64,000 nt of DNA. Source: a virus. This document shows positions 3,491-35,847 of this stretch, piece after piece. Below the pieces are notes generated by a model. That model was not told the DNA's origin. It did no database searches and was given only the letters and a program-made list of their open reading frames with translations. The stretch covers positions 74,244 to 138,243 of the IMG/VR virus record IMGVR_UViG_3300045988_165974, one strand, 5' to 3'. Position 1 is the first letter of the stretch; every line of letters begins with the position of its first letter. A program made the translations under genes and the position numbers.

Positions 3491-4660
3491 TTGCTAAAGA
3501 GTTACAAAACGGAAATAAACCCAACACAGGAACAAATACAAAAGATAAATAAAACAATTGGAACTTGTAGATTTATTTATAATTTTTACATCGCTCATAA
3601 TAAAGAACTCTATAACAAGGGCGAAAAATTTATGACGGCAAAATCATTCAGTGTTTGGTTAAATAATGAATTTCTACCAAATAATCCGAATTATTCATGG
3701 ATAAAAGAAGTAAGTTCTAAATCAGTTAAAAAATCTATGGAAAATGCTTATACTGCTTTTAATAAGTTTTTTAAGAAACAAAGTAAGTTTCCTAGATTTA
3801 AGAAAAAGAATAAATCTGATGTAAAAATGTACTTTGTAAAAAATAATCCAAAAGATTGTTTCTGTGAAAGACATAGAATTAATATTCCTACTCTTGGATG
3901 GATTAAATTAAAAGAAAAGGGATATATTCCTACTACTAAAGACGGATATGTAATTAAAAGTGGTACGGTTTCTTGCAAAGCTGGAAGATATTATGTATCA
4001 GTTTTAATTGATACTTCTGATACAGAAAAACCACAATTAAATGACTTTGGATTAGGAATTGATTTAGGTGTTAAAGAATTTGCGGTAATTAGTAATGGAA
4101 CTATAAAGAAAAATATAAATAAAACTGCTAAATTAAAAAAAATAGAAAAACAATTAAAAAGAGAACAGCGTTGCCTATCGAGAAAATACGAAGGATTAAA
4201 GAAACGCAACAATAAAATGAAAGGAGAAGCCACTAGGCAAAATATTAAAAAACAAGTCTTAAAGGTACAGAAACTTCATCAAAGAATGGATAATATTCGT
4301 ACTGATTATATCAATAAATGTGTAAATGAGATAGTGAAAACCAAGCCATCTTATATTACCATTGAAGATTTGAATGTAAAAGGAATGATGAAGAATAAAC
4401 ATCTCTCTAAGGCAGTTGCTTCACAGAAATTCTATGAATTTAGAACTAAACTTGAAACAAAATGCAAAGAATTAGGAATTGAATTAAGAATTGTAAATAG
4501 GTGGTATCCATCGAGTAAATTGTGTCATGAATGTGGTTGTATCAATAAAGATTTAAAACTTTCTGACAGAGAATATATTTGTGGATGTGGATACCATGCT
4601 GATAGAGATTATAATGCAAGTCTTAATTTGAGAGATGCAATATCCTACAAAATAGCATAA
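3491..4660 (+). CDS. tnpB: TnpB (OrfB) RNA-guided endonuclease
   Basis: RuvC triad is present in GIDLGVKEFAV (D), ITIEDLNVKGM (E) and HADRDYNASLNL (D). A Zn finger reads CHECG...CGCGYH. The N-terminus YKTEINPTQEQ...CRFIYN is typical. TTG start after an AGGAGG RBS. Confidence 0.9.
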   Translation: MLKSYKTEINPTQEQIQKINKTIGTCRFIYNFYIAHNKELYNKGEKFMTAKSFSVWLNNEFLPNNPNYSWIKEVSSKSVKKSMENAYTAFNKFFKKQSKFPRFKKKNKSDVKMYFVKNNPKDCFCERHRINIPTLGWIKLKEKGYIPTTKDGYVIKSGTVSCKAGRYYVSVLIDTSDTEKPQLNDFGLGIDLGVKEFAVISNGTIKKNINKTAKLKKIEKQLKREQRCLSRKYEGLKKRNNKMKGEATRQNIKKQVLKVQKLHQRMDNIRTDYINKCVNEIVKTKPSYITIEDLNVKGMMKNKHLSKAVASQKFYEFRTKLETKCKELGIELRIVNRWYPSSKLCHECGCINKDLKLSDREYICGCGYHADRDYNASLNLRDAISYKIA

Positions 4661-4846
4661 ACAAGCATTTGTAGGTATGTACCGATGGCTTTAGTCGGGA
4701 ATTTACGACTGTGGACTGTACAAGAACTTGTGAGTAGTGTATTACTTTGTAATCACAAAAGCATACAGGATGAAACAGTAAGAAAAGTTTGTGAAAACTT
4801 TCAATATCTCGATATGGGTATATTTGTCCATATTTTGAGTGGCAGG
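4661..4846 (+). ncRNA. Putative TnpB omega (right-end) RNA scaffold
   Basis: Lies immediately 3' of tnpB. A 170-nt block (4677-4846) recurs at 24942-25111. Hairpins AAAGTTT-GTGA-AAACTTT (4784-4801) and ATATGG...CCATAT (4812-4833) are present. Confidence 0.55.
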
Positions 4847-15668: not shown

Positions 15669-16295
15669 ATGAAATATTACTCAATAGGAGAATTTGCGAA
15701 CCAAATAGGCAAGACGGTTCAAACACTTAGAAATTGGGATAATAAAGGAACTTTAAAACCGCATCATGTAACAGTAGGCGGAACAAGGTATTATTCTCAA
15801 GAACAACTTAATCATTTCTTAGGACTTAAAAATATGGAATCTAAAAATAAAAAAATTATTGGTTATTGCAGAGTTAGTTCTTATAAACAAAAAGACGACC
15901 TTGAAAGGCAAATTGAAAATGTAAAAACATATATGTATGCAAAAGGTTATCAATTCGAGATTATTTCTGATATTGGAAGTGGAATAAACTATAATAAAAA
16001 AGGATTAAATCAATTAATAGATATGATTACTAATTCAGAAATAGATAAGATAGTAGTCCTTCATAAAGATAGATTAATTAGATTTGGATATGAATTAATA
16101 AAAAATCTTTGTGATAAGTATGGGACTACTATTGAAATTATAGATAATACCGAGAGGACAGAAGAACAAGAATTAGTTGAAGATTTAATTCAGATAATCA
16201 CTGTATTTAGCTGTAGACTTCAAGGTAAAAGAGCTAATAAAGCTAAGAAAATGATTAAGGAGTTGATAGAAGATGATACTTGCAAAGAAAGTTAG
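15669..16295 (+). CDS. tnpA: IS607-type TnpA: MerR-like HTH plus serine recombinase
   Basis: The N-terminus reads ...YSIGEFANQIGKTVQTLRNWDNKG... The catalytic region reads ...IIGYCRVSSYKQKDDLERQ... Confidence 0.85.
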   Translation: MKYYSIGEFANQIGKTVQTLRNWDNKGTLKPHHVTVGGTRYYSQEQLNHFLGLKNMESKNKKIIGYCRVSSYKQKDDLERQIENVKTYMYAKGYQFEIISDIGSGINYNKKGLNQLIDMITNSEIDKIVVLHKDRLIRFGYELIKNLCDKYGTTIEIIDNTERTEEQELVEDLIQIITVFSCRLQGKRANKAKKMIKELIEDDTCKES

Positions 16296-17388
16296 ATTGT
16301 GCCCAAGTGAACTACAAGAAGAAAAAATATGGCAATCAGTAGGGACTGCAAGATTTATTTATAATTGGACTTTAAATAGGCAAGATGAAAATTATAAAGG
16401 TGGTGGTAAATTCATACCTGATAGTGTTCTTAGAAAAGAAATAACTCAATTAAAGAAAACTGACTTAAGTTGGTTAAATGAAGTATCTAATAATGTTGCA
16501 AAACAAGCTGTAAAAGATGCCTGTGATTCATATAAAAGATTCTTTAAAGGATTGTCAGGTAAACCTAGATTTAAAAGTAGAAAAAGAAGTAAGAAGTCTT
16601 TTTATCATGACAATGTTAAACTTAAAGTCAAGGATAATAAATTAGTTAAGATTGAAAAGATAGGTTGGATTAAAACTAATGAGCAACTATCTATTGGAGC
16701 TAAATATAGCAATCCAAGAATAAGTTATGATAACAAATATTGGTATTTATCAGTAGGTATAGAACAGGAAGAAATCCAAGAAGAATTAACAGATGCATCA
16801 TTAGGAATAGATTTAGGATTGAAAAACTTAGCAATCTGTTCTGATGGCACAGTATATAAAAATATAAATAAAACTTGTACAGTCAAAAAAATCGAAAAGA
16901 AACTAAAAAGATTACAAAGACAAATAAGTAGAAAGTATGAAAAAAATAAAAAAGGAAAGGAGTATGTCAAAACTAAAAATATTATAAAACTTGAAAAGCA
17001 GATACAACAGACACATAGAAGATTAGCTAATATTAGAAATAACTATCTTCATCAAACTACTACAAGTATAGTGAAAACCAAACCATACAGAGTTGTAATA
17101 GAAGATTTAGCAGTTTCTGATATGATGAAAAATAAACATTTATCTGATGCTATAAGAAAACAAGGATTCTATGAATTTAGAAGACAACTTGAATACAAGT
17201 GCAATTTTAGAGGAATTAAGTTAGTCGTAGCAGATAGATTTTATCCATCGTCAAAAATTTGTAGCCAATGTGGAGAGATTAAGAAGGATTTAAAGATATC
17301 CGATAGAGTATACAAGTGTAATTGTGGGCTTGTGATTGATAGAGATTTAAATGCAAGTATTAATCTTTCTAAATATAAATTAGCATAA
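16273..17388 (+). CDS. tnpB: TnpB RNA-guided endonuclease
   Basis: GIDLGLKNLAI (D), VVIEDLAVSDM (E), a Zn finger CSQCG...CNCG, and IDRDLNASINL (D). Confidence 0.9.
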   Translation: MILAKKVRLCPSELQEEKIWQSVGTARFIYNWTLNRQDENYKGGGKFIPDSVLRKEITQLKKTDLSWLNEVSNNVAKQAVKDACDSYKRFFKGLSGKPRFKSRKRSKKSFYHDNVKLKVKDNKLVKIEKIGWIKTNEQLSIGAKYSNPRISYDNKYWYLSVGIEQEEIQEELTDASLGIDLGLKNLAICSDGTVYKNINKTCTVKKIEKKLKRLQRQISRKYEKNKKGKEYVKTKNIIKLEKQIQQTHRRLANIRNNYLHQTTTSIVKTKPYRVVIEDLAVSDMMKNKHLSDAIRKQGFYEFRRQLEYKCNFRGIKLVVADRFYPSSKICSQCGEIKKDLKISDRVYKCNCGLVIDRDLNASINLSKYKLA

Positions 17389-17556
17389 TATCATTAATAA
17401 GATAATGCTAATATGTAGGATGCGTTGTATCCAAATTTACGCCCTTGGAGAGTTATATCAAACGAAAGTAGGTTGTTATTTATAATTTCCAAAATCGAAT
17501 TCGTAGAACAGGGAATTAAACAAGATTTATAGATATTTATAGATTTTTGGCAACGG
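17389..17556 (+). ncRNA. Putative omega RNA scaffold of the IS607 TnpB
   Basis: Lies 3' of tnpB. It shares TGTAGG...stem...AATTTACG(N)C..TGGA architecture with 4671-4720. Confidence 0.4.
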
Positions 17557-24654: not shown

Positions 24655-25111
24655 AAGGAGGAATGTTAAGTAACTAAAAACATAATCAAATGTGAGTCAA
24701 TGTACTCAAAGATACTCAAAATCCAGAGTATTAGCTGGTGACTTAAAACCGCTGAAATCTTAGGAAAGATAAGCCAGTACAAGTTGAAACAGTCTTGTTA
24801 ACTATGGGGCAGAACCCTGATGGTAAAGATTGAGCAATGGTAGAAGTCTACGAAAACCAAGTAGCAGAACATAAAATATTAGGAAAGGAAAAGCTATTTA
24901 GATGAAACCTGTATCTAATCAATAGAAAGGAATTTACAGGCATGTACCGATGGCTTAGTCGGGAATTTACGACTGTGGAGTGTACACGAACCTGCGAGTA
25001 GCGTATTACTTTGTAATCACAAAAGCATGCACATTGAAGCAGTAACTGCAAGTCGTGAGACTGCAGCGAATCATCTAGCATATACACATTTGTATATGTT
25101 CTTAGTAGCAG
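24655..25111 (+). mobile_element. tnpB-less relic of an IS605-family element that keeps the omega-RNA-like right end
   Basis: AAAGGAGGAATGTTAAGTAAC (24655-) resembles the RBS and start of tnpB at 3481-3505. CTGATGGTAAAGATTGAGCAATGG (about 24818) resembles the HADRDYNAS codons of tnpB. The 3' 170 nt match 4677-4846. Confidence 0.5.
24942..25111 (+). ncRNA. Orphan omega-RNA-like structured RNA (second copy of 4677-4846)
   Basis: The first ~95 nt are near-identical to copy 1. Distal hairpins CTGCAAGTC-GTGA-GACTGCAG (25046-25066) and CATATACA-CATT-TGTATATG (25079-25098) replace the copy-1 stems with different but still complementary sequence. Confidence 0.55.
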
Positions 25112-29442: not shown

Positions 29443-30672
29443 ATGAAAACATATGTTAATTATCATAAACACACATTTTATAGCAATATTATGACTCCTG
29501 ATTGTACTGTTTCTGTTGAACAATATTTAAATAGAATACAAGAACTTGGATATGGAGTTTATAGTACTGTAGAACATGGATATGGAGGAGAAAATTTCGA
29601 AACTTATCTTAAAGTAGAAAAGTTCAATAAAAAAAGAGAAAAAAAGGGACTTTCTCCAATAAAAATAATTTTTGGAATGGAATTATATTGGGTTCAGGAT
29701 AGACATAAAAAGGATAAATCAAACTGTCATATAGTTGTACTTGCAAGAAATAATAATGGAAGAAAAGCTCTAAATAAGATTATGAGCAGAGGAAATATAG
29801 ATGGGTACTACTATAAGCCTAGAGTGGATTTAGAACTCCTTATGAGCCTTCCTCCAGACGATATAATGATAACTACTGCCTGCATAGCTTTTAATAGATA
29901 TGAGGATATAGACGATATAATACTTATGCTAAATGATAGATTTCCACATTTTTATTTAGAAGTTCAAGCACATAATGTAGAAATTCAGAAAAAATGGAAT
30001 CAACATCTTTTAGATTTAAGCTATGAACATGACTTAAAAATAATTGCAGGAGTAGATAGTCATATGATATATGAATCTCAAGAAATAGAAAGAGATGAAT
30101 ATTTAAAAAGCAAAAATATGATATATGAAGAAGAAGACGGGTTTTACTTAGATTATCCAGATTATGAGACATTATATGATAGATTTAAGACCCAAGGAAT
30201 ATTATCTGATGAAGAAATAACTTTAGCTTTAGAAAATACAAATAAAATATTAGAATTTGAAGATATAAAATTAGATAAATCCATGAAATTACCTAATATA
30301 TATAAAACTTTAACTCAAGAAGAGAGAAATCAAAAACTTCACGATATTGTATTTGAAAACTGGAGAAAAGAAAAAAATAATGTTCCAAAAGATAAATGGT
30401 CTTATTATGAAAAACAAATTAATTATGAACTTTCTGAAATATTTGGATGCGGAATGGCAGATTATTTCTTGTTTAATGAAAAAACAATAGATTTAGGAAT
30501 AAACAAATATGGAGGAGTTTTAACACATAGCGGAAGGGGAAGTGCAGTTAGTTTTTATACAAATAAATTACTTGGATTTACAAATGTAGATAGAATCGCT
30601 TCAAAAATAACTATGTACCCTGAACGTTTTATGACTAAAGACAGAATACTAAAATCTCATACCCCACCTGAT
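29443..30672 (+). CDS. dnaE: DNA polymerase III alpha subunit (DnaE-type), exon 1 (PHP domain)
   Basis: The PHP motif reads ...VNYHKHTFYSN...STVEHGY... The exon ends ...KSHTPPD at a T (30672). Exon 2 continues IDFNV... and restores the PD-x-D-F polymerase motif. Confidence 0.75.
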
Positions 30673-31928
30673 TGGAAAATATTTATAAAATATGCTTATT
30701 AAAAAATATGAAAACTGATTATTATGTTTACGAATGGTACAATATTGAAACCAAAGAAGTTTTTTATGTTGGAAAAGGGAGAAAACATCGTTTTAAATGT
30801 GTTAGTGCTAAAAAAAAGAAGTAAAGAATTTATCAGTTATTATAATTCTCATAAATGTGACGTTAGAAAAATTAAAACAAATTTAACAGAAAAAGAAACT
30901 TATGAATTAGAAATTAAAATTATACAATATTATTTAGAAAATACTTCATATCCTCTTACAAATAAAACTAAAGGAGGAGATGGAGGCAGAGGAGAATTAA
31001 TAACAAATGAATTTAGGACTAAAATGAGCAAAATTGTAAGAGGAGAAAATAATCCAAATTACGGTCACTATTGGACAGAAGAACAAAGAGAAAAGTTAAG
31101 AGAAAAAATGATTGATAGATACAATGGAGAAAATAACCCTAATTACGGAAACCGTTGGAATAACCAACAAAGGGAAAGAATGAGTATTCAAAGAAAAAAT
31201 AATCCAAAATATTCAAATGGAAATCACGGAAGAGCTAAAAGGGTTATCGTGTTAGAAACTGGCGAAAAATTTGATTGTGTGAAATTAGCAAAAGCAAAAA
31301 GAGATGAATTAAATAAATCTTCTTTAGAATATAATATTGTAGAATTAACAGAAGAAAATGAAAAATATTTAGACGATGAAATAAATAGAATCAAAGAGAT
31401 AAAGAAAATTTTAAAATTAAAAACAAAGCTGTTTTTCTTTATAAGAGATGATAATAAAATAATATATTCACTCAAATCTCTAATGGAAGAAACAGGATTT
31501 GGAAAGAAAAAAATAAAATCCATGATAGAAAAAGAAGGAAGTGTAAAAACAAATAAGCATATTTATTATAAAATATAACAGTCGTCTTATAAGGAAACTT
31601 ATAGGATTACCATATCGCAAATTGTCTGGAACAAAGACTCTATATTTAACCTTTATAGAGTCACCCTAAAGCCTCATTTACTACAACATAAGAATGAAAT
31701 AAATCTAAGTGTGAATGTTGCGAAAGCAGAAAAAAATAATGAGGATGCCATAAGCTGAGATAAAAGCATACATAGGGTTATTGTATGTGCTAAGTGGTGT
31801 AAGAATGGGAAATCAGCAGCCGTGCCTCGAATAGAGGAGGGTTCAACGACTAAGCTCGATACACCTGTAAAATGGTGAAGATATAGTCTACTCCCCTAAG
31901 AAATATCGGGAAACCGAGGGTATTAAGG
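30673..31928 (+). mobile_element. Group I self-splicing intron carrying a homing endonuclease ORF
   Basis: Conserved core elements appear in order: P-like AAATTGTCTGGAA (about 31619-31631), Q-like AAATCAGCAGCC (31810-31821), R GTTCAACGACTA (31841-31852) and S AAGATATAGTCTA (31878-31890). P7 pairs GACTA with TAGTC. The 5' exon ends in T and the intron ends in G (31928). Confidence 0.75.
30708..31578 (+). pseudogene. GIY-YIG homing endonuclease with NUMOD3-like repeats, frameshifted in an A8 run
   Basis: Frame 0 reads MKTDYYVYEWYNIETKEVFYVGKGRKHRF...SAKKKK*. The +1 frame continues KKRSKEFISYYN...ETYELEIKIIQYY...LTNKTKGGDG, then GENNPNYG repeats. The frames join if A8 (30810-30817) were A7. Confidence 0.75.
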
Positions 31929-33971
31929 ATAGATTTTAATGTAAGTGACAGAGAGCCATTCCTAAAGGCTCAAAAGGAATTATTAGGAGAAACTTGTTGT
32001 TATGATTTATTAGCTTTTGGTACATTAAAACTTAAAGCTGCTTGGAAAATGTATGCTAGAGCTTGTGACATAAATCCAACTAAAGCTAATGAAATATCTC
32101 AACAAATAACTGCATATGAAACTAGATTAAAATATGCAAAAAGAGATGAAAATGGAGAACTTTTAGACGAAATAAATGTAGAAGATTTCGTAGAATCTAA
32201 ATATCTTCCATTAATTGACGAATGCAAAAAATATTTAGGAATAATAGATAATGGGAAAGCACATCCGTGTGGCTGTCTAGTCGGCTCATTTGATATAGAA
32301 GAAGAAGTTGGAGTTATCTTATGTAAATCAGAAACCACAAAAAAACAAGTTTTGACTGCTTGTATTCAAAGTGGAGTAATAGATTACTTTTCCTTCTTAA
32401 AAAATGATTTCCTAATCGTTTCGGTAGTAAAAACAACAAATGAAATTTACAATCGTTTAGGAATAAAACAATACTCCGAAAAAGAATTACTTGAATTAGT
32501 TGAAAATAATCAAAAGGTTTGGGATATATATAAGAATGGACTAACATTATGTATTAATCAAATAGAAAAACCAGGAACTCGTAAAAAAGTTATGAAGTAT
32601 AAGCCTAAAAATATAGTTGAACTAACTGCTTTTATTGCTGCAATAAGACCTTCATTTAAATCTTTAGTAAAACAATTTTTATCTAGGGAAGATTTTCATT
32701 ATGATGTAAAAGAATTTGATGAATTATTGCAAACAGAAGAAATGCCATATTCTTATATATTTTATCAAGAACAACTAATGAAAATATTAGGATTTGCTAA
32801 CTTTGACATAAAAGAAACATATGACATAGTAAAATCAATTTCTAAGAAAAAAACATATTGTAAAGAATGTGGAAATACGGGAAATGACGGAATGAAAACC
32901 TGTCCCGTATGTGGAAGTACAAAAATTGCTGCATTGGTTGATAAATTTGAAGAACAATTCTTAGATGGATTTACTAATAAGATAAGTACTCATGATGTAG
33001 AAATAACAAAAAAAATTTGGAGGGTCTTATTAGATTTTGCTAAATATGGATTCAATGCCTCTCATGCTTATTGTATGGCTTTAGATAGTGTCGAACAGGC
33101 ATATCTTAAAGCTTATCATACGGGAGTATTCTATGAGGTCATGTTAAGCATCTATACAAAAAAAGGAGAAAAAGATAAAGTATCAGAACTAAAACAAGAA
33201 ATGAAAAACTTTGGCATCAAATTAGGTAAAATAGCTTTTGGAGAAAATAATTATGAGTTTAAATACATTCCTGAAAAGAATGAAATAACTCAAAATATAA
33301 CTTCTTTTAAAAATATAAATCAACAATGTGCGATAGAGTTATATAAACTTTCTCAAGCTAAACGCTATAATAATTTTTTAGAACTATTAAAAGATATAAA
33401 AGAAAAAACTTCAATCTCAAAAAGACAATTAGACCCACTTATAGATATGGGGTATTTTGCAGAATTTGGAAACACACAATATATTAGAAAATGTTATGAA
33501 GTATTTGAAATGTTTTATAAAAAAGTACAATTTAGTAATGCAAATCCATATTCTTATATTATTGAAAAATACGCTAATAAAAAAACTCCTAAGCAATACA
33601 GAGAAGTAGATACAGATAAAGTAATGTTAGATATCATGAGTAATTATGATAAAGCTGTGAGCGACATTGAAAAGGTTATATACGATTTTAAAAAATACAA
33701 TGAAACAAGTCACATAACAGAAAATAAATATTATGTCGTTATGGATTTAGATACAAAATATTCTCCAAAACTTACTTTGTATAATACTAAAAATAAAAAC
33801 AAACAGGTAGTAAAAATAAGTAAATCTTTGTTTAATAAAATACCATTATCAGAGTACGATGCAATTAAAATAAAAAAAGTAGTTCCAAAACCTAGAAAGA
33901 AAAAAATTGACGGAGAATGGACTAATTTATCTGTAACAGATTATTGGATAATAGACTATGAAAAAGTATAG
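31929..33971 (+). CDS. dnaE: DNA polymerase III alpha subunit, exon 2
   Basis: In frame from 31929 (IDFNVSDREPFLKAQKELLGE...). ...FAKYGFNASHAYCMALDSVEQAYLKAYH... matches the DnaE fingers motif FA-YGFNKSHA. The tracked ORF starts at an internal ATG (32049). Confidence 0.75.
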   Translation: MDFNVSDREPFLKAQKELLGETCCYDLLAFGTLKLKAAWKMYARACDINPTKANEISQQITAYETRLKYAKRDENGELLDEINVEDFVESKYLPLIDECKKYLGIIDNGKAHPCGCLVGSFDIEEEVGVILCKSETTKKQVLTACIQSGVIDYFSFLKNDFLIVSVVKTTNEIYNRLGIKQYSEKELLELVENNQKVWDIYKNGLTLCINQIEKPGTRKKVMKYKPKNIVELTAFIAAIRPSFKSLVKQFLSREDFHYDVKEFDELLQTEEMPYSYIFYQEQLMKILGFANFDIKETYDIVKSISKKKTYCKECGNTGNDGMKTCPVCGSTKIAALVDKFEEQFLDGFTNKISTHDVEITKKIWRVLLDFAKYGFNASHAYCMALDSVEQAYLKAYHTGVFYEVMLSIYTKKGEKDKVSELKQEMKNFGIKLGKIAFGENNYEFKYIPEKNEITQNITSFKNINQQCAIELYKLSQAKRYNNFLELLKDIKEKTSISKRQLDPLIDMGYFAEFGNTQYIRKCYEVFEMFYKKVQFSNANPYSYIIEKYANKKTPKQYREVDTDKVMLDIMSNYDKAVSDIEKVIYDFKKYNETSHITENKYYVVMDLDTKYSPKLTLYNTKNKNKQVVKISKSLFNKIPLSEYDAIKIKKVVPKPRKKKIDGEWTNLSVTDYWIIDYEKV

Positions 33972-34389: not shown

Positions 34390-35847
34390 ATGAAAAAGAA
34401 AAACAATGATGTTATCATTGAGTTTTTAGGGACTAGTAGAGACGAAGTTACTGGCTCATGTGTGCTAGTTTCATATGTAAATTCAGATGACGAAAGGGAA
34501 AATATCCTAATCGAATGTGGAATGAATCAAGGGGGTCCTACTATATTATCTGACTATAATACAAATAAAAGAATGGTTGAGAAAGTTCCGTTTTCAAACA
34601 TTAAATATATATTTGTTAATCATGTCCATGTAGACCATATAGGAAACCTTCCTACTGCCTTCAACAGAGGATTTACAGGAGAGGTAATAACAACAGAAGA
34701 CAATAGAGAATTAATGATTCCCTTACTTAATGACACATATACAATACATTTAAAAAATGTAAAAAAAATAAATGAAAAAGGAAAGAATTTAGATTTACTC
34801 TTTAATAAAATAGATGTACATACTACTATTCATAAAACTAGAATCTTTGAAAAAAATATTATTCATAAATTAAACGAAACTCTTTCTTTTAGATTCTTGC
34901 CAAATAATCATTGCGTAGGAGCTTGTCAATTAGAATTGTTTATTAAGAAACCAAGTGGGAAAATTGCTAAAATATTTTATTCATCAGATTTAGGCTCTAA
35001 TTACAATTCTAAGCACTCTCCTTTCTTGGATGATATAGTATATTCAACTACTTCTGACATAGCTATATTCGAAGCGACATATGGCAATAAAGACAGAAAT
35101 TTTGCTAAGAAAAACGTAATCAACGAAAGAAAAGATTTAATTACACAAATAAAAAAATATACTAGTATGAATCATCGAGTTTTAATACCTTCTTTTTCAT
35201 TTAGTAGAAGTCAAATGCTTATGTCATTTTTATATGATAATTTAAAAGACGATAAAGATTTTGACAACATTTCAGTTATAGTCGATTCTAAACTATTAAA
35301 TGACATTAATGGAGTTTATAGCAAAATACTTAAAGGAGAAAATAAAGAATATTGGGAACAGGTTTTAAGTTGGAGCAATTTTCATTTTGTTAAGGAATTT
35401 AAAGATACCGAAACCATTATTAAGAAGAAAGATATCCCAATGGTGATAATTTCAAGCGCTGGAATGTGTAATGCAGGTCATGTAGTAAGTTATGCTAAAT
35501 CTATATTGCTAAATCCTAATGACTGCATGATATTTGTTGGTTATTGTGGCTTAAACACTTTAGGAAGTATGATTCAGAATAATAGACTAAATAGCGTTAC
35601 AATAAACAGAGAAATATACGAAAAAAAATGCGATATCATTTCTTACAAAACTTTTTCTTCTCATATACAACAAGCAGAACTTATTGATTATATGAAAAAA
35701 ATCAATACAGGAAAAATTTTATTACATCATGGTAGTACTAGTAGTAAAGAGGAACTTAAATTAGCAGCTAAAGAAGAATTGTTCAAGGCAAATAAAACAA
35801 CTCCTATTGAAATAGTAACAAATAAGAACAAGGAGTTTAGAGTTTAA
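34390..35847 (+). CDS. Metallo-beta-lactamase / beta-CASP family nuclease
   Basis: HxHxDH motif ...VNHVHVDHIGN... The 485-aa size and the late ...LLHHGS... histidine are typical of beta-CASP enzymes. Confidence 0.7.
   Translation: MKKKNNDVIIEFLGTSRDEVTGSCVLVSYVNSDDERENILIECGMNQGGPTILSDYNTNKRMVEKVPFSNIKYIFVNHVHVDHIGNLPTAFNRGFTGEVITTEDNRELMIPLLNDTYTIHLKNVKKINEKGKNLDLLFNKIDVHTTIHKTRIFEKNIIHKLNETLSFRFLPNNHCVGACQLELFIKKPSGKIAKIFYSSDLGSNYNSKHSPFLDDIVYSTTSDIAIFEATYGNKDRNFAKKNVINERKDLITQIKKYTSMNHRVLIPSFSFSRSQMLMSFLYDNLKDDKDFDNISVIVDSKLLNDINGVYSKILKGENKEYWEQVLSWSNFHFVKEFKDTETIIKKKDIPMVIISSAGMCNAGHVVSYAKSILLNPNDCMIFVGYCGLNTLGSMIQNNRLNSVTINREIYEKKCDIISYKTFSSHIQQAELIDYMKKINTGKILLHHGSTSSKEELKLAAKEELFKANKTTPIEIVTNKNKEFRV

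Follow-up and report, generated by a model that had tools for sequence, protein, structure and literature searches.

The gene for a DnaE-type DNA polymerase in the IMG/VR virus record IMGVR_UViG_3300045988_165974 is interrupted by 1256 nt (30673-31928) which, with a probability of roughly 0.9, constitute a splicing-competent group I intron, its splicing being predicted from the sequence. The DNA analysed, referred to as the window, is a stretch of 64,000 nt (positions 74,244 to 138,243 of that record); all coordinates without a contig name refer to it, and all features of the gene and the intron lie on its plus strand. The assignment is carried by an insert that equals the difference from an intron-less relative to the base, by the gapless alignment of the joined exons with uninterrupted polymerases, by a structured core shared with a subfamily of phage introns and by compensatory changes in the helix predicted to span the 5' splice site. 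The loop of this helix holds the gene of a putative homing endonuclease.

The interrupted polymerase gene

Three consecutive open reading frames (ORFs) lie within 29443-33971 (29443-30702, 30724-31578 and 32049-33971 in the ORF list). The first matches the Pfam families PHP (1.8e-17) and DNA_pol3_alpha (2.1e-10), the latter being the N-terminal part of the Pol III alpha NTPase/palm domain, and the third matches the Pol III fingers and HhH domains. As a preliminary description made from the letters alone had proposed, the two are evidently halves of one DnaE-type (C-family) Pol III alpha subunit, with PHP, palm/NTPase, fingers and HhH domains in order. Exon 1 (29443-30672) comprises 410 codons with the PHP domain and the start of the palm; its ATG at 29443 is preceded by a good Shine-Dalgarno sequence, AAAGGA, and it ends with ...HTPPD and the base U30672. 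Exon 2 (31929-33971; 680 codons plus stop) begins with IDFNV... and contains the rest of the palm, the fingers and the HhH part. Joining T30672 to A31929 yields, in agreement with the preliminary description, an in-frame product of 1090 codons that reads ...TPPD|IDFNV... and in which the Asp-x-Asp of the palm is recreated.

A search of the protein collection returned 5366 DnaE homologues at E<=1e-5. Two uninterrupted ones, P0001 (89% identity) and P0002 (75%), are exactly 1090 aa long, and the predicted spliced product aligns with 16 homologues without a gap across the junction (...(T/L)PPD | (I/V)D(F/W/H/N)N...). The gene for P0001 lies on contig L125, which is syntenic with the window and has the order VWA gene, dnaE, DUF7446 gene and beta-CASP gene. 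The BLAST alignment of L125 with the window breaks at 30671/31951, and the remaining 23 bases on each side match one to one, so that the extra DNA of the window is exactly 30673-31928, that is 1256 nt. The empty site of L125 reads ...ACACCGCCCGAC|GTGGATTTT... (also written ...CCGCCCGAC|GTGGAT...). The 5' exon ends in U (U30672) and the intron in G (G31928, the terminal or omega-G, with the 3' splice site at 31928|31929), again as first described. If the junction is moved by one base in either direction with the frame kept, the exon-U or the intron-G rule is broken; its placement is fixed by the sequence, because only 30672/31928 fits frame, exon-U and intron-G together. An insert of this exactness, with gapless collinearity of the flanking protein sequence, is far beyond chance.

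The junction falls in the catalytic centre. In an alignment with the Thermus aquaticus Pol III alpha subunit (2hpi), P-D410-I-D412 lies on MPDIDTDF; against the Escherichia coli enzyme (2hnh) the register is two residues off. Whichever of the two alignments is taken, the junction parts the only two aspartates that this clade has in that palm motif. The third acidic motif, KNDF, lies in exon 2 and aligns to KMDF/KFDF of 2hpi/2hnh.

It is conceivable that a free-standing endonuclease gene has split dnaE and that each half is translated on its own, the two polypeptides then assembling with no RNA splicing involved; nrdA of Aeromonas phage Aeh1 is arranged in this manner. Such a split dnaE, named in the preliminary description as the refuting alternative, would agree with the three separate ORFs given by gene callers, with a stop that exon 1 reaches 9 codons beyond the junction, with the availability of ATG 32049 in exon 2 and with an Rfam score below threshold (see below). 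Yet this ATG, the sole in-frame start of exon 2, is found 40 codons into exon 2 with no proper Shine-Dalgarno sequence before it, and the 40 codons that it would skip, which include Asp412 and contain no start codon, are conserved: of their 19 codon differences from L125, 15 are synonymous and 4 non-synonymous. Since the change is mostly synonymous, these startless codons are translated and under purifying selection, which needs continuity with exon 1. Separate translation would moreover place the catalytic aspartates on different chains, and a free-standing cassette has no need of the conserved, structured group I core that makes up the 350-nt non-coding tail of the insert. Separately made halves are thus very improbable.

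Still less probable, to the point of being negligible, is a fractured gene in which split-intein halves surround a free-standing endonuclease and the polymerase is joined by protein trans-splicing (Dassa et al. 2009, PMC2677866). There are indeed DnaE loci fractured in this way, with a GIY-YIG endonuclease between the halves, and two relatives of the window protein, P0022 and P0026, contain inteins. In the window there is no space for intein halves, exon 1 having 9 extra codons and exon 2 none in a gapless alignment; Pfam finds no intein domain, and the inteins of P0022 and P0026 occupy a different site. What the window holds between the exons is best read as an intron that is removed from the RNA.

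The inteins of these two relatives (PF14890) are inserted at ...GKAHP|C..., at about residue 523 of the window protein, which marks a second hot spot of insertion in this polymerase. Two further viral contigs (loci L262 and L265) match the DnaE query only up to the intein point.

The ribozyme core and its relatives

The 350 non-coding bases between the endonuclease gene and exon 2 (31579-31928) have a G+C content of 38%, against 27.4% for the window. By blastn they show about 70% similarity over 160-230 nt to unannotated gaps of 353 phage records, mostly of Staphylococcus, Enterococcus, Bacillus and Listeria phages. One of these gaps is preceded by an N-terminal lysin fragment of the phage K type. 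In Enterocloster phage CB457P1 another such gap adjoins a gene annotated as "intron-associated endonuclease", and the Rfam group I intron model RF00028 scores 93.6 bits on that element. Other blastn relatives also pass RF00028, with 64-109 bits (L073, L077, L105 and L109, also L003). A signature of the P5 arm (TAAAGC...ACYACARCRTA...AAGYGYGA) plus the R and S elements was used to collect the family, which has 38 members. The window is one of them; L126, another, is an ENA scaffold of 136 kb that carries the same split dnaE and intron and matches the window at 98.5% identity over 8.9 kb. An nhmmer profile built from the 36 members without these two gave a single match in the 64-kb window, at 31564-31916 on the plus strand (E 9.3e-44). 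This sequence evidence establishes homology between 31579-31928 and one subfamily of phage group I introns, several members of which pass RF00028.

The helices P2 to P9 can all be formed, and every modelled pair is canonical in the window. The P2 hairpin (31585-31606), with a GAAA tetraloop at 31594-31597, is found in the minimum free energy (MFE) fold with 9 of 9 pairs canonical, is supported by the RF00028 alignment and is also GNRA-capped in the relatives. The 5' strand of P3, UAUCG (31613-31617), pairs with 31857-31861. The P element AAAUUGUCUGGAAC (31620-31633) comprises J3/4 and the 5' strand of P4 (31623-31629, with U31625 bulged) and is likewise placed by the RF00028 alignment. In J4/5, between P4 and P5, the MFE fold contains an extra 9-bp hairpin of 27 nt (31636-31662). 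P5 (CCC/GGG, 31664-31666 with 31807-31809) carries an arm of about 140 nt, so that P5 and arm together span 31664-31809; this part is modelled by homology to the relatives that pass RF00028 and includes P5a (31672-31678 with 31738-31744), a GCGAAAGC hairpin and a receptor-like UAAGC/GCUAAG. The Q element AAAUCAGCAGCC (31810-31821) provides the 3' strand of P4 (31813-31818). P6 (31819-31821 with 31840-31842) is capped by the P6a hairpin CCUC GAAUA GAGG, the two together occupying 31819-31842.

The R element (31841-31861) comprises J6/7, the 5' strand of P7 (A31846, the bulged C31847 and G31848-A31852) and the 3' strand of P3, CGAUA (31857-31861). It is followed by the P8 hairpin, CACC UGUAAAAU GGUG (31862-31877), and by the S element AAGAUAUAGUCUA (31878-31890), which contains the 3' strand of P7 (31884-31889). 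The P, Q, R and S elements thus stand in the order that had been proposed for the 1256-nt insert: the R string GTTCAACGACTA begins at 31841, the S string AAGATATAGTCTA at 31878, and the pairing of GACUA with UAGUC forms P7 (31846-31852 with 31884-31889). At the sequence level G31848-C31888, beside the bulged C31847, is the presumed G-binding pair. P7.1 and P7.2 are absent, and the spacing of 38 nt between R and S is the shortest in the family. P9 (31893-31920) was taken from the fold of the tail and consists of CCC/GGG (31893-31895 with 31918-31920) and an inner hairpin UCGG-GAAA-CCGA (31906-31917). The RF00028 alignment of the core puts P2, P3, P4, P6, P8 and P9 as modelled.

Comparison across the family supports these pairings. 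At least 17 distinct P3 5' strands occur. The complement of each is found immediately 5' of a P8 hairpin, which takes up the remaining distance to S, and 6 of the 7 family P3 pairs change on both sides. The third P6 pair varies between C-G, U-A and G-C; in P9, C31895-G31918 is replaced by G-C in L077, and the inner stem reads UUGU/GCAA in L275. A MAFFT alignment of the 38 full cores misplaced P3 and P4 of the window owing to the hairpin after P4, and mini-cores of anchored segments in fixed register (35 distinct sequences, with the bulged U31625 of the window dropped) were used instead. In these, 95.1% of the pairing cells are filled by pairs, compared with 80.7% after shuffling and 26-42% when the partners are slid. 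Changes on both sides are seen at 16 of the 29 pairs, the covariation score is 0.427 against 0.141, and none of 500 shuffles reaches the family score. P5, P6 and P8 covary, as does P3, which is biased by having had its 3' strand found by complementarity; for P5 and P6 only sequence anchors determined the placement, and P8 was positioned from the P3 3' strand and S. P4 and P7 are nearly invariant.

GAAA loops are present in P2, the P5 arm and P9 of the window. Many relatives have in P8 and in the P5 arm a motif (CCUAAG...UAUGG) which we take to be the classic 11-nt GAAA-tetraloop receptor; the window has only a variant receptor (UAAGC...GCUAAG, within 31752-31796) in the P5 arm and none in P8.

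The predicted guide sequence and other introns at the same site

To locate P1, 221 intronic G positions were scanned for pairing with the exon end. Three of them give at least 6 contiguous pairs, and only one, CAGUCG at 31579-31584, lies directly 5' of P2, the canonical position of an internal guide sequence. Its partner would be UGAU|UG (30669-30674), which spans the 5' splice site at 30672|30673 and includes the wobble U30672.G31581. The guide is about 900 nt from the splice site, and the P1 loop (30675-31578) contains the whole endonuclease gene. The preliminary description had put this gene in a 5' peripheral loop only 35 nt into the intron, where its ATG (30708) is indeed found; the loop can now be specified as that of P1. 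That the endonuclease ORF fills the P1 loop is suggested by the pairing and backed by compensatory changes in diverged introns.

These introns were located via endonuclease homologues of 40-50% identity and occupy the same dnaE site in L272-L274, L275 and L276 (L272:2971-4109, L275:2961-4119, L276:2463-3794). The DnaE proteins of L272-L276 are only 30-50% identical to that of the window; in all of them exon 1 ends in ...PD and exon 2 begins with ID.N. Exon end and intron start read UGAU / UG in the window (guide CAGUCG) and in L272 (guide CAGUCC), UGAU / UA in L275 (guide UAGUCC) and CGAU / UA in L276 (guide UAGUCG). Intron position +2 and its partner change jointly from G-C (window, L272) to A-U (L275, L276), and at position -4 the U.G pair of the window is replaced by C-G in L276. 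In the window, L272, L275 and L276 the guide lies 880-1060 nt from the splice site and immediately 5' of the P2 hairpin. The endonuclease ORF of L272, L275 and L276 reads through the guide into P2, with its stop codon in or beside the P2 loop. The L272-type core is shorter and different from that of the window: RF00028 gives 21.6 bits on L272 and no match on the whole of L272 or of L275, and the window-type nhmmer profile does not match this core. The P1 and P9 ends of the two types are near-identical.

A second break in the dnaE gene of L276 (4244-4280) was considered as a further intron and ruled out; it is a poly-A frameshift in a polished long-read assembly.

The endonuclease

A short ORF in a different frame (30672-30824) reads MKTDYYVYEWYNIETKEVFYVGKGRKHR... 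from ATG 30708. This N-terminal piece (30708-30824; 38 codons plus stop) contains YVYEW...FYVGKGRKHR, the GIY/YIG/Arg part of the enzyme. A run of eight A (30810-30817) shifts the frame, and the remainder (30818-31578), with the E and N positions of the GIY-YIG domain, two NUMOD3 motifs and a C-terminal DNA-binding region, follows in the +1 frame. Its stop codon TAA (31576-31578) abuts the guide sequence. When one A of 30810-30817 is deleted, an ORF of 289 codons is restored, and L126 encodes an intact protein of 289 aa (P0121) that is 98% identical to the repaired endonuclease of the window. The A-run, A7 in L126 and A8 in the window, is the only gap in the alignment of the two. The window copy is either a recent frameshift mutant that is losing mobility or the product of a homopolymer sequencing error. 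In view of the poly-A frameshift of L276, an error is just as conceivable for the A8. A -1 shift of the ribosome on A_AAA_AAG within the A8 was also considered and rejected; it would lead into the wrong frame and to an early stop, and restoring the ORF needs +1 or -2 frameshifting or a transcript shorter by one A.

The class given in the preliminary description, GIY-YIG/NUMOD, held for the NUMOD part by domain search (Pfam NUMOD3, PF07460, 5e-13 in two stretches). The Pfam GIY-YIG family (PF01541) does not match the frame-repaired protein at E<=1, and the gene has turned out to be split by the frameshift. PF01541 is likewise present in only 1 of the 73 listed endonuclease homologues. The catalytic label comes from the fold and from conserved residues. 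An AlphaFold2 model built from an alignment of 28 sequences has a pLDDT of 81, and its 12 best PDB fold matches are all GIY-YIG nucleases (PD-T4-3 and the UvrC N-terminal domain; probability 0.72-1.00, TM up to 0.59 on the target). Y8, Y20, G22, E61 and N85 are invariant in the family and R28 is nearly so. The family profile finds GIY-YIG chains with modest E values (0.01-0.08) and the DNA-binding domain of I-TevI (1i3j) at 7e-4. A GIY-YIG/NUMOD3-type endonuclease is thus supported, with modest statistics. A search of PHROGs with the protein returned one weak family of unknown function only. Matches to integrin I-domains on the lysine-rich C-terminus, obtained with a single-sequence phmmer search of the PDB, were judged spurious.

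Free-standing, full-length homologues of the endonuclease (P0142 and P0152, 32-36% identity) are encoded on two other contigs (L277:2501-3454 and L278:2501-3454). They are flanked by a RecJ-like DHH gene and, directly downstream, by an intact dnaE, with the start of which they overlap. On L277 a further GIY-YIG gene, recognised by PF01541, lies just upstream of the free-standing homologue.

Competence of the intron and predicted splicing

Several observations weigh against a functional mobile intron. RF00028 found nothing at its gathering threshold in the whole window, nor at E<=10 on the 1.5 kb of 30550-32100, and the 25.0 bits that it gives on the core miss the cut-off of 50 bits. P1 has only 4 exon pairs, two of them G.U, and P3 has 5 pairs compared with 7 in most relatives. 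The extra hairpin occupies J4/5, which as a rule makes contact with the wobble pair of the splice site. For P10 no convincing pairing was seen; by eye there is only an offset 6-bp pairing, all A-U, of 31933-31938 with 31569-31574, which is not kept in L272 or L275. The endonuclease is frameshifted and lacks a Shine-Dalgarno sequence.

The Rfam scan, which the preliminary description had proposed as a check and whose failure on 31579-31928 it would have read as a refutation, came out divided: the general model is silent on the larger stretches, yet on the 361-nt core alone (31575-31935) it aligns 31575-31910 as a 5'-truncated match (E 1.8e-4). The low score can be ascribed to the 27-nt hairpin at 31636-31662, the long P5 arm, the absence of P7.1/P7.2 and a P1 5' strand that is 900 nt away. 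This shortfall is outweighed by the subfamily profile match and the structure counts. Since L226 and L235 have hairpins at the same place in J4/5, with different stem sequences, the extra hairpin is no peculiarity of the window copy.

The low Rfam score, the short P3 and P1, the extra hairpin and the frameshifted endonuclease would also be expected of a decayed element that no longer splices, in which case dnaE would be a pseudogene in a defective or assembly-derived genome. Against this stand two open exons that diverge from L125 mostly by synonymous change (221 synonymous and 121 non-synonymous codon differences), the canonical pairs in all core helices together with the shared J4/5 hairpins, and the independent scaffold L126, in which the endonuclease is intact and the core differs by a single change, C31640U, that keeps its pair as U.G. 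In addition, several diverged phages carry an intron at this site; such occupation implies that the insert is tolerated over the long term, and hence that it is spliced. A decayed element is accordingly unlikely, if somewhat less so than separately translated halves, and the ribozyme part of the window intron appears intact despite its frameshifted endonuclease.

For an active intron the following course can be envisaged. The dnaE gene would be transcribed as a single pre-mRNA, in which the exon end UGAU and the first two intron bases would pair with CAGUCG to form P1 with the wobble U30672.G31581, the endonuclease ORF being looped out. Exogenous guanosine bound at the G31848-C31888 pair of P7 would attack after U30672, and the 3'-OH of the released exon would then attack after the terminal G31928. 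Ligation of GAU|AUA, with the predicted junction ...CCACCUGAU|AUAGAUUUU..., would restore the palm motif Asp410-Ile-Asp412 and the polymerase of 1090 aa. In mixed infections the GIY-YIG/NUMOD3 endonuclease would cut intron-less dnaE genes such as that of L125, and repair would copy the intron in, the predicted homing step.

Possible modular exchange and neighbouring elements

The two core types at the dnaE site lack any detectable similarity to each other; the endonucleases that accompany them are homologous, and their P1 and P9 ends near-identical. A different kind of join is seen on contig L124 (L124:3620-3830, Logan ERR13195589). There a tape-measure gene is followed by the 5' half of another intron, AATTGCGGGAAATCC..., which merges at 99% identity into the P5 arm of the window intron from 31676 onwards and then continues into dnaE exon 2. 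Whether L124 is a real recombinant or an assembly chimera formed via shared intron sequence, a related intron in a tail gene is implied.

The free-standing endonuclease homologues of L277 and L278, the two cores at one site and the L124 join suggest that endonuclease cassettes and ribozyme modules may recombine among introns and genes, an "assembly line" of mobile introns in one gene. We offer this idea tentatively and regard it as rather doubtful. If true, it would support a route to composite introns by endonuclease invasion or collaborative homing.

Some further elements were encountered in the course of the analysis. The second gene downstream of dnaE (34390-35847) encodes a metallo-beta-lactamase/beta-CASP protein of 485 aa, and its counterpart in L125 shows, alongside beta-CASP, a weak Pfam match to the anti-Pycsar Apyc1 family. 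Two TnpB genes (3491-4660 and 16273-17388; HTH_OrfB_IS605, OrfB_IS605 and Cas12f1-like TNB domains) each have a RAGATH-18 RNA no more than about 50 nt downstream (4708-4781, 75 bits, and 17442-17515, 68 bits). These pairs look like IS605-type units of TnpB plus guide RNA in a phage genome. A third RAGATH-18 copy (24972-25045, 64 bits) has no TnpB ORF upstream and appears orphaned. Outside the window, a large phage contig of 211 kb (IMG/VR 3300037466_002091, L021:1965-5866) carries 11 introns detected by RF00028 (75-101 bits) head to tail on one strand within about 4 kb, which is unusually dense.

Occurrence and significance

A megablast search of phage genomes with the 4.5-kb region gave only matches of 45-53 nt, so that this phage is absent from the collection searched. 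For 107 deposited phage records with a related dnaE, all matches listed cross the junction in one piece, and 27 of 29 related viral contigs are uninterrupted there, the other two stopping about 115 residues downstream, near the intein site. Among the subfamily relatives that were fetched none is located in dnaE. Full-text literature searches returned no report of a group I intron in dnaE, and a 2014 review of bacterial group I introns (PMC3984707) makes no mention of dnaE or of Pol III.

It is textbook knowledge that polymerase, reductase and lysin genes of phages can contain group I introns with homing endonucleases. The insertion site could hardly be more conserved, as it leaves the catalytic aspartates on different exons. 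Automatic annotation breaks the polymerase into a "PHP protein", a "NUMOD3 protein" and a "Pol III fingers protein". The general Rfam model misses the ribozyme, and the subfamily signature could be used to re-annotate many phage genomes. The family would also constitute a natural series for the formation and decay of composite introns: its endonucleases are variously intact, frameshifted or free-standing, and a single site is occupied by two types of core.

Comparison with known systems

Introns in family-A phage polymerase genes are known from SPO1/SP82 (I-HmuI/II), Bastille (I-BasI) and cyanophage Pf-WMP3 (I-PfoP3I) (PMC3984707, PMC3428280, PMC421625). The SPO1-type introns resemble the one described here in that a group I intron with a homing endonuclease is inserted in the catalytic region of the replicative polymerase of the phage itself, in phages of low-GC Gram-positive hosts. 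In contrast to them, the window gene belongs to the C-family, its endonuclease is of the GIY-YIG/NUMOD3 type and not a nicking HNH enzyme, and the ORF lies in the P1 loop.

The td intron of phage T4 with I-TevI is likewise a phage group I intron that encodes a modular GIY-YIG endonuclease with NUMOD3-type modules. In td the ORF of I-TevI sits in a loop of P6, and P7.1/P7.2 are present in the core. The window intron differs in its ORF in P1, the absence of P7.1/P7.2, its long P5 arm and a catalytic domain that is missed by Pfam GIY-YIG. An ORF in the P1 loop is found in the recA group I introns of Bacillus cereus and phage 0305phi8-36 (PMC2677866), which share with the window the position of the endonuclease ORF and its placement in a replication or repair gene of a Firmicute or a phage; their endonucleases are Vsr-like, and the host gene is another.

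Split or fractured DnaE genes with inteins include the cyanobacterial split DnaE and the fractured DnaE loci (PMC2677866). In these dnaE is also in two pieces, sometimes with a GIY-YIG gene between them, but repair takes place at the protein level by split inteins, whereas the window has a ribozyme core and no intein residues. In collaborative homing, the psbA intron of cyanophage S-PM2 is served by the free-standing endonuclease F-CphI (PMC3984707; see also PMC6083498). The endonuclease family of the window also occurs free-standing upstream of intact dnaE genes (L277, L278), a link of homology and position alone; in contrast to the S-PM2 system, the analysis found no intron partner lacking an ORF.

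The homologous introns of the subfamily lie in Herelleviridae phages and viral contigs, such as those of CB457P1 and of the phage K-type lysin site, with which the window shares the core CCCUAAAGC...ACUACAAC...AAGUGUGAA...AAUCAGCAGCC...GGUUCAACGACUA...AAGAUAUAGUC. Most of them differ from it in having P7.1/P7.2 and a P3 of 7 bp, and in CB457P1, the one annotated case, the endonuclease gene lies 3' of the core. The dnaE intron is thus a known kind of mobile element, with a distinct variant of the core, in a new class of host gene, the C-family DnaE polymerase.

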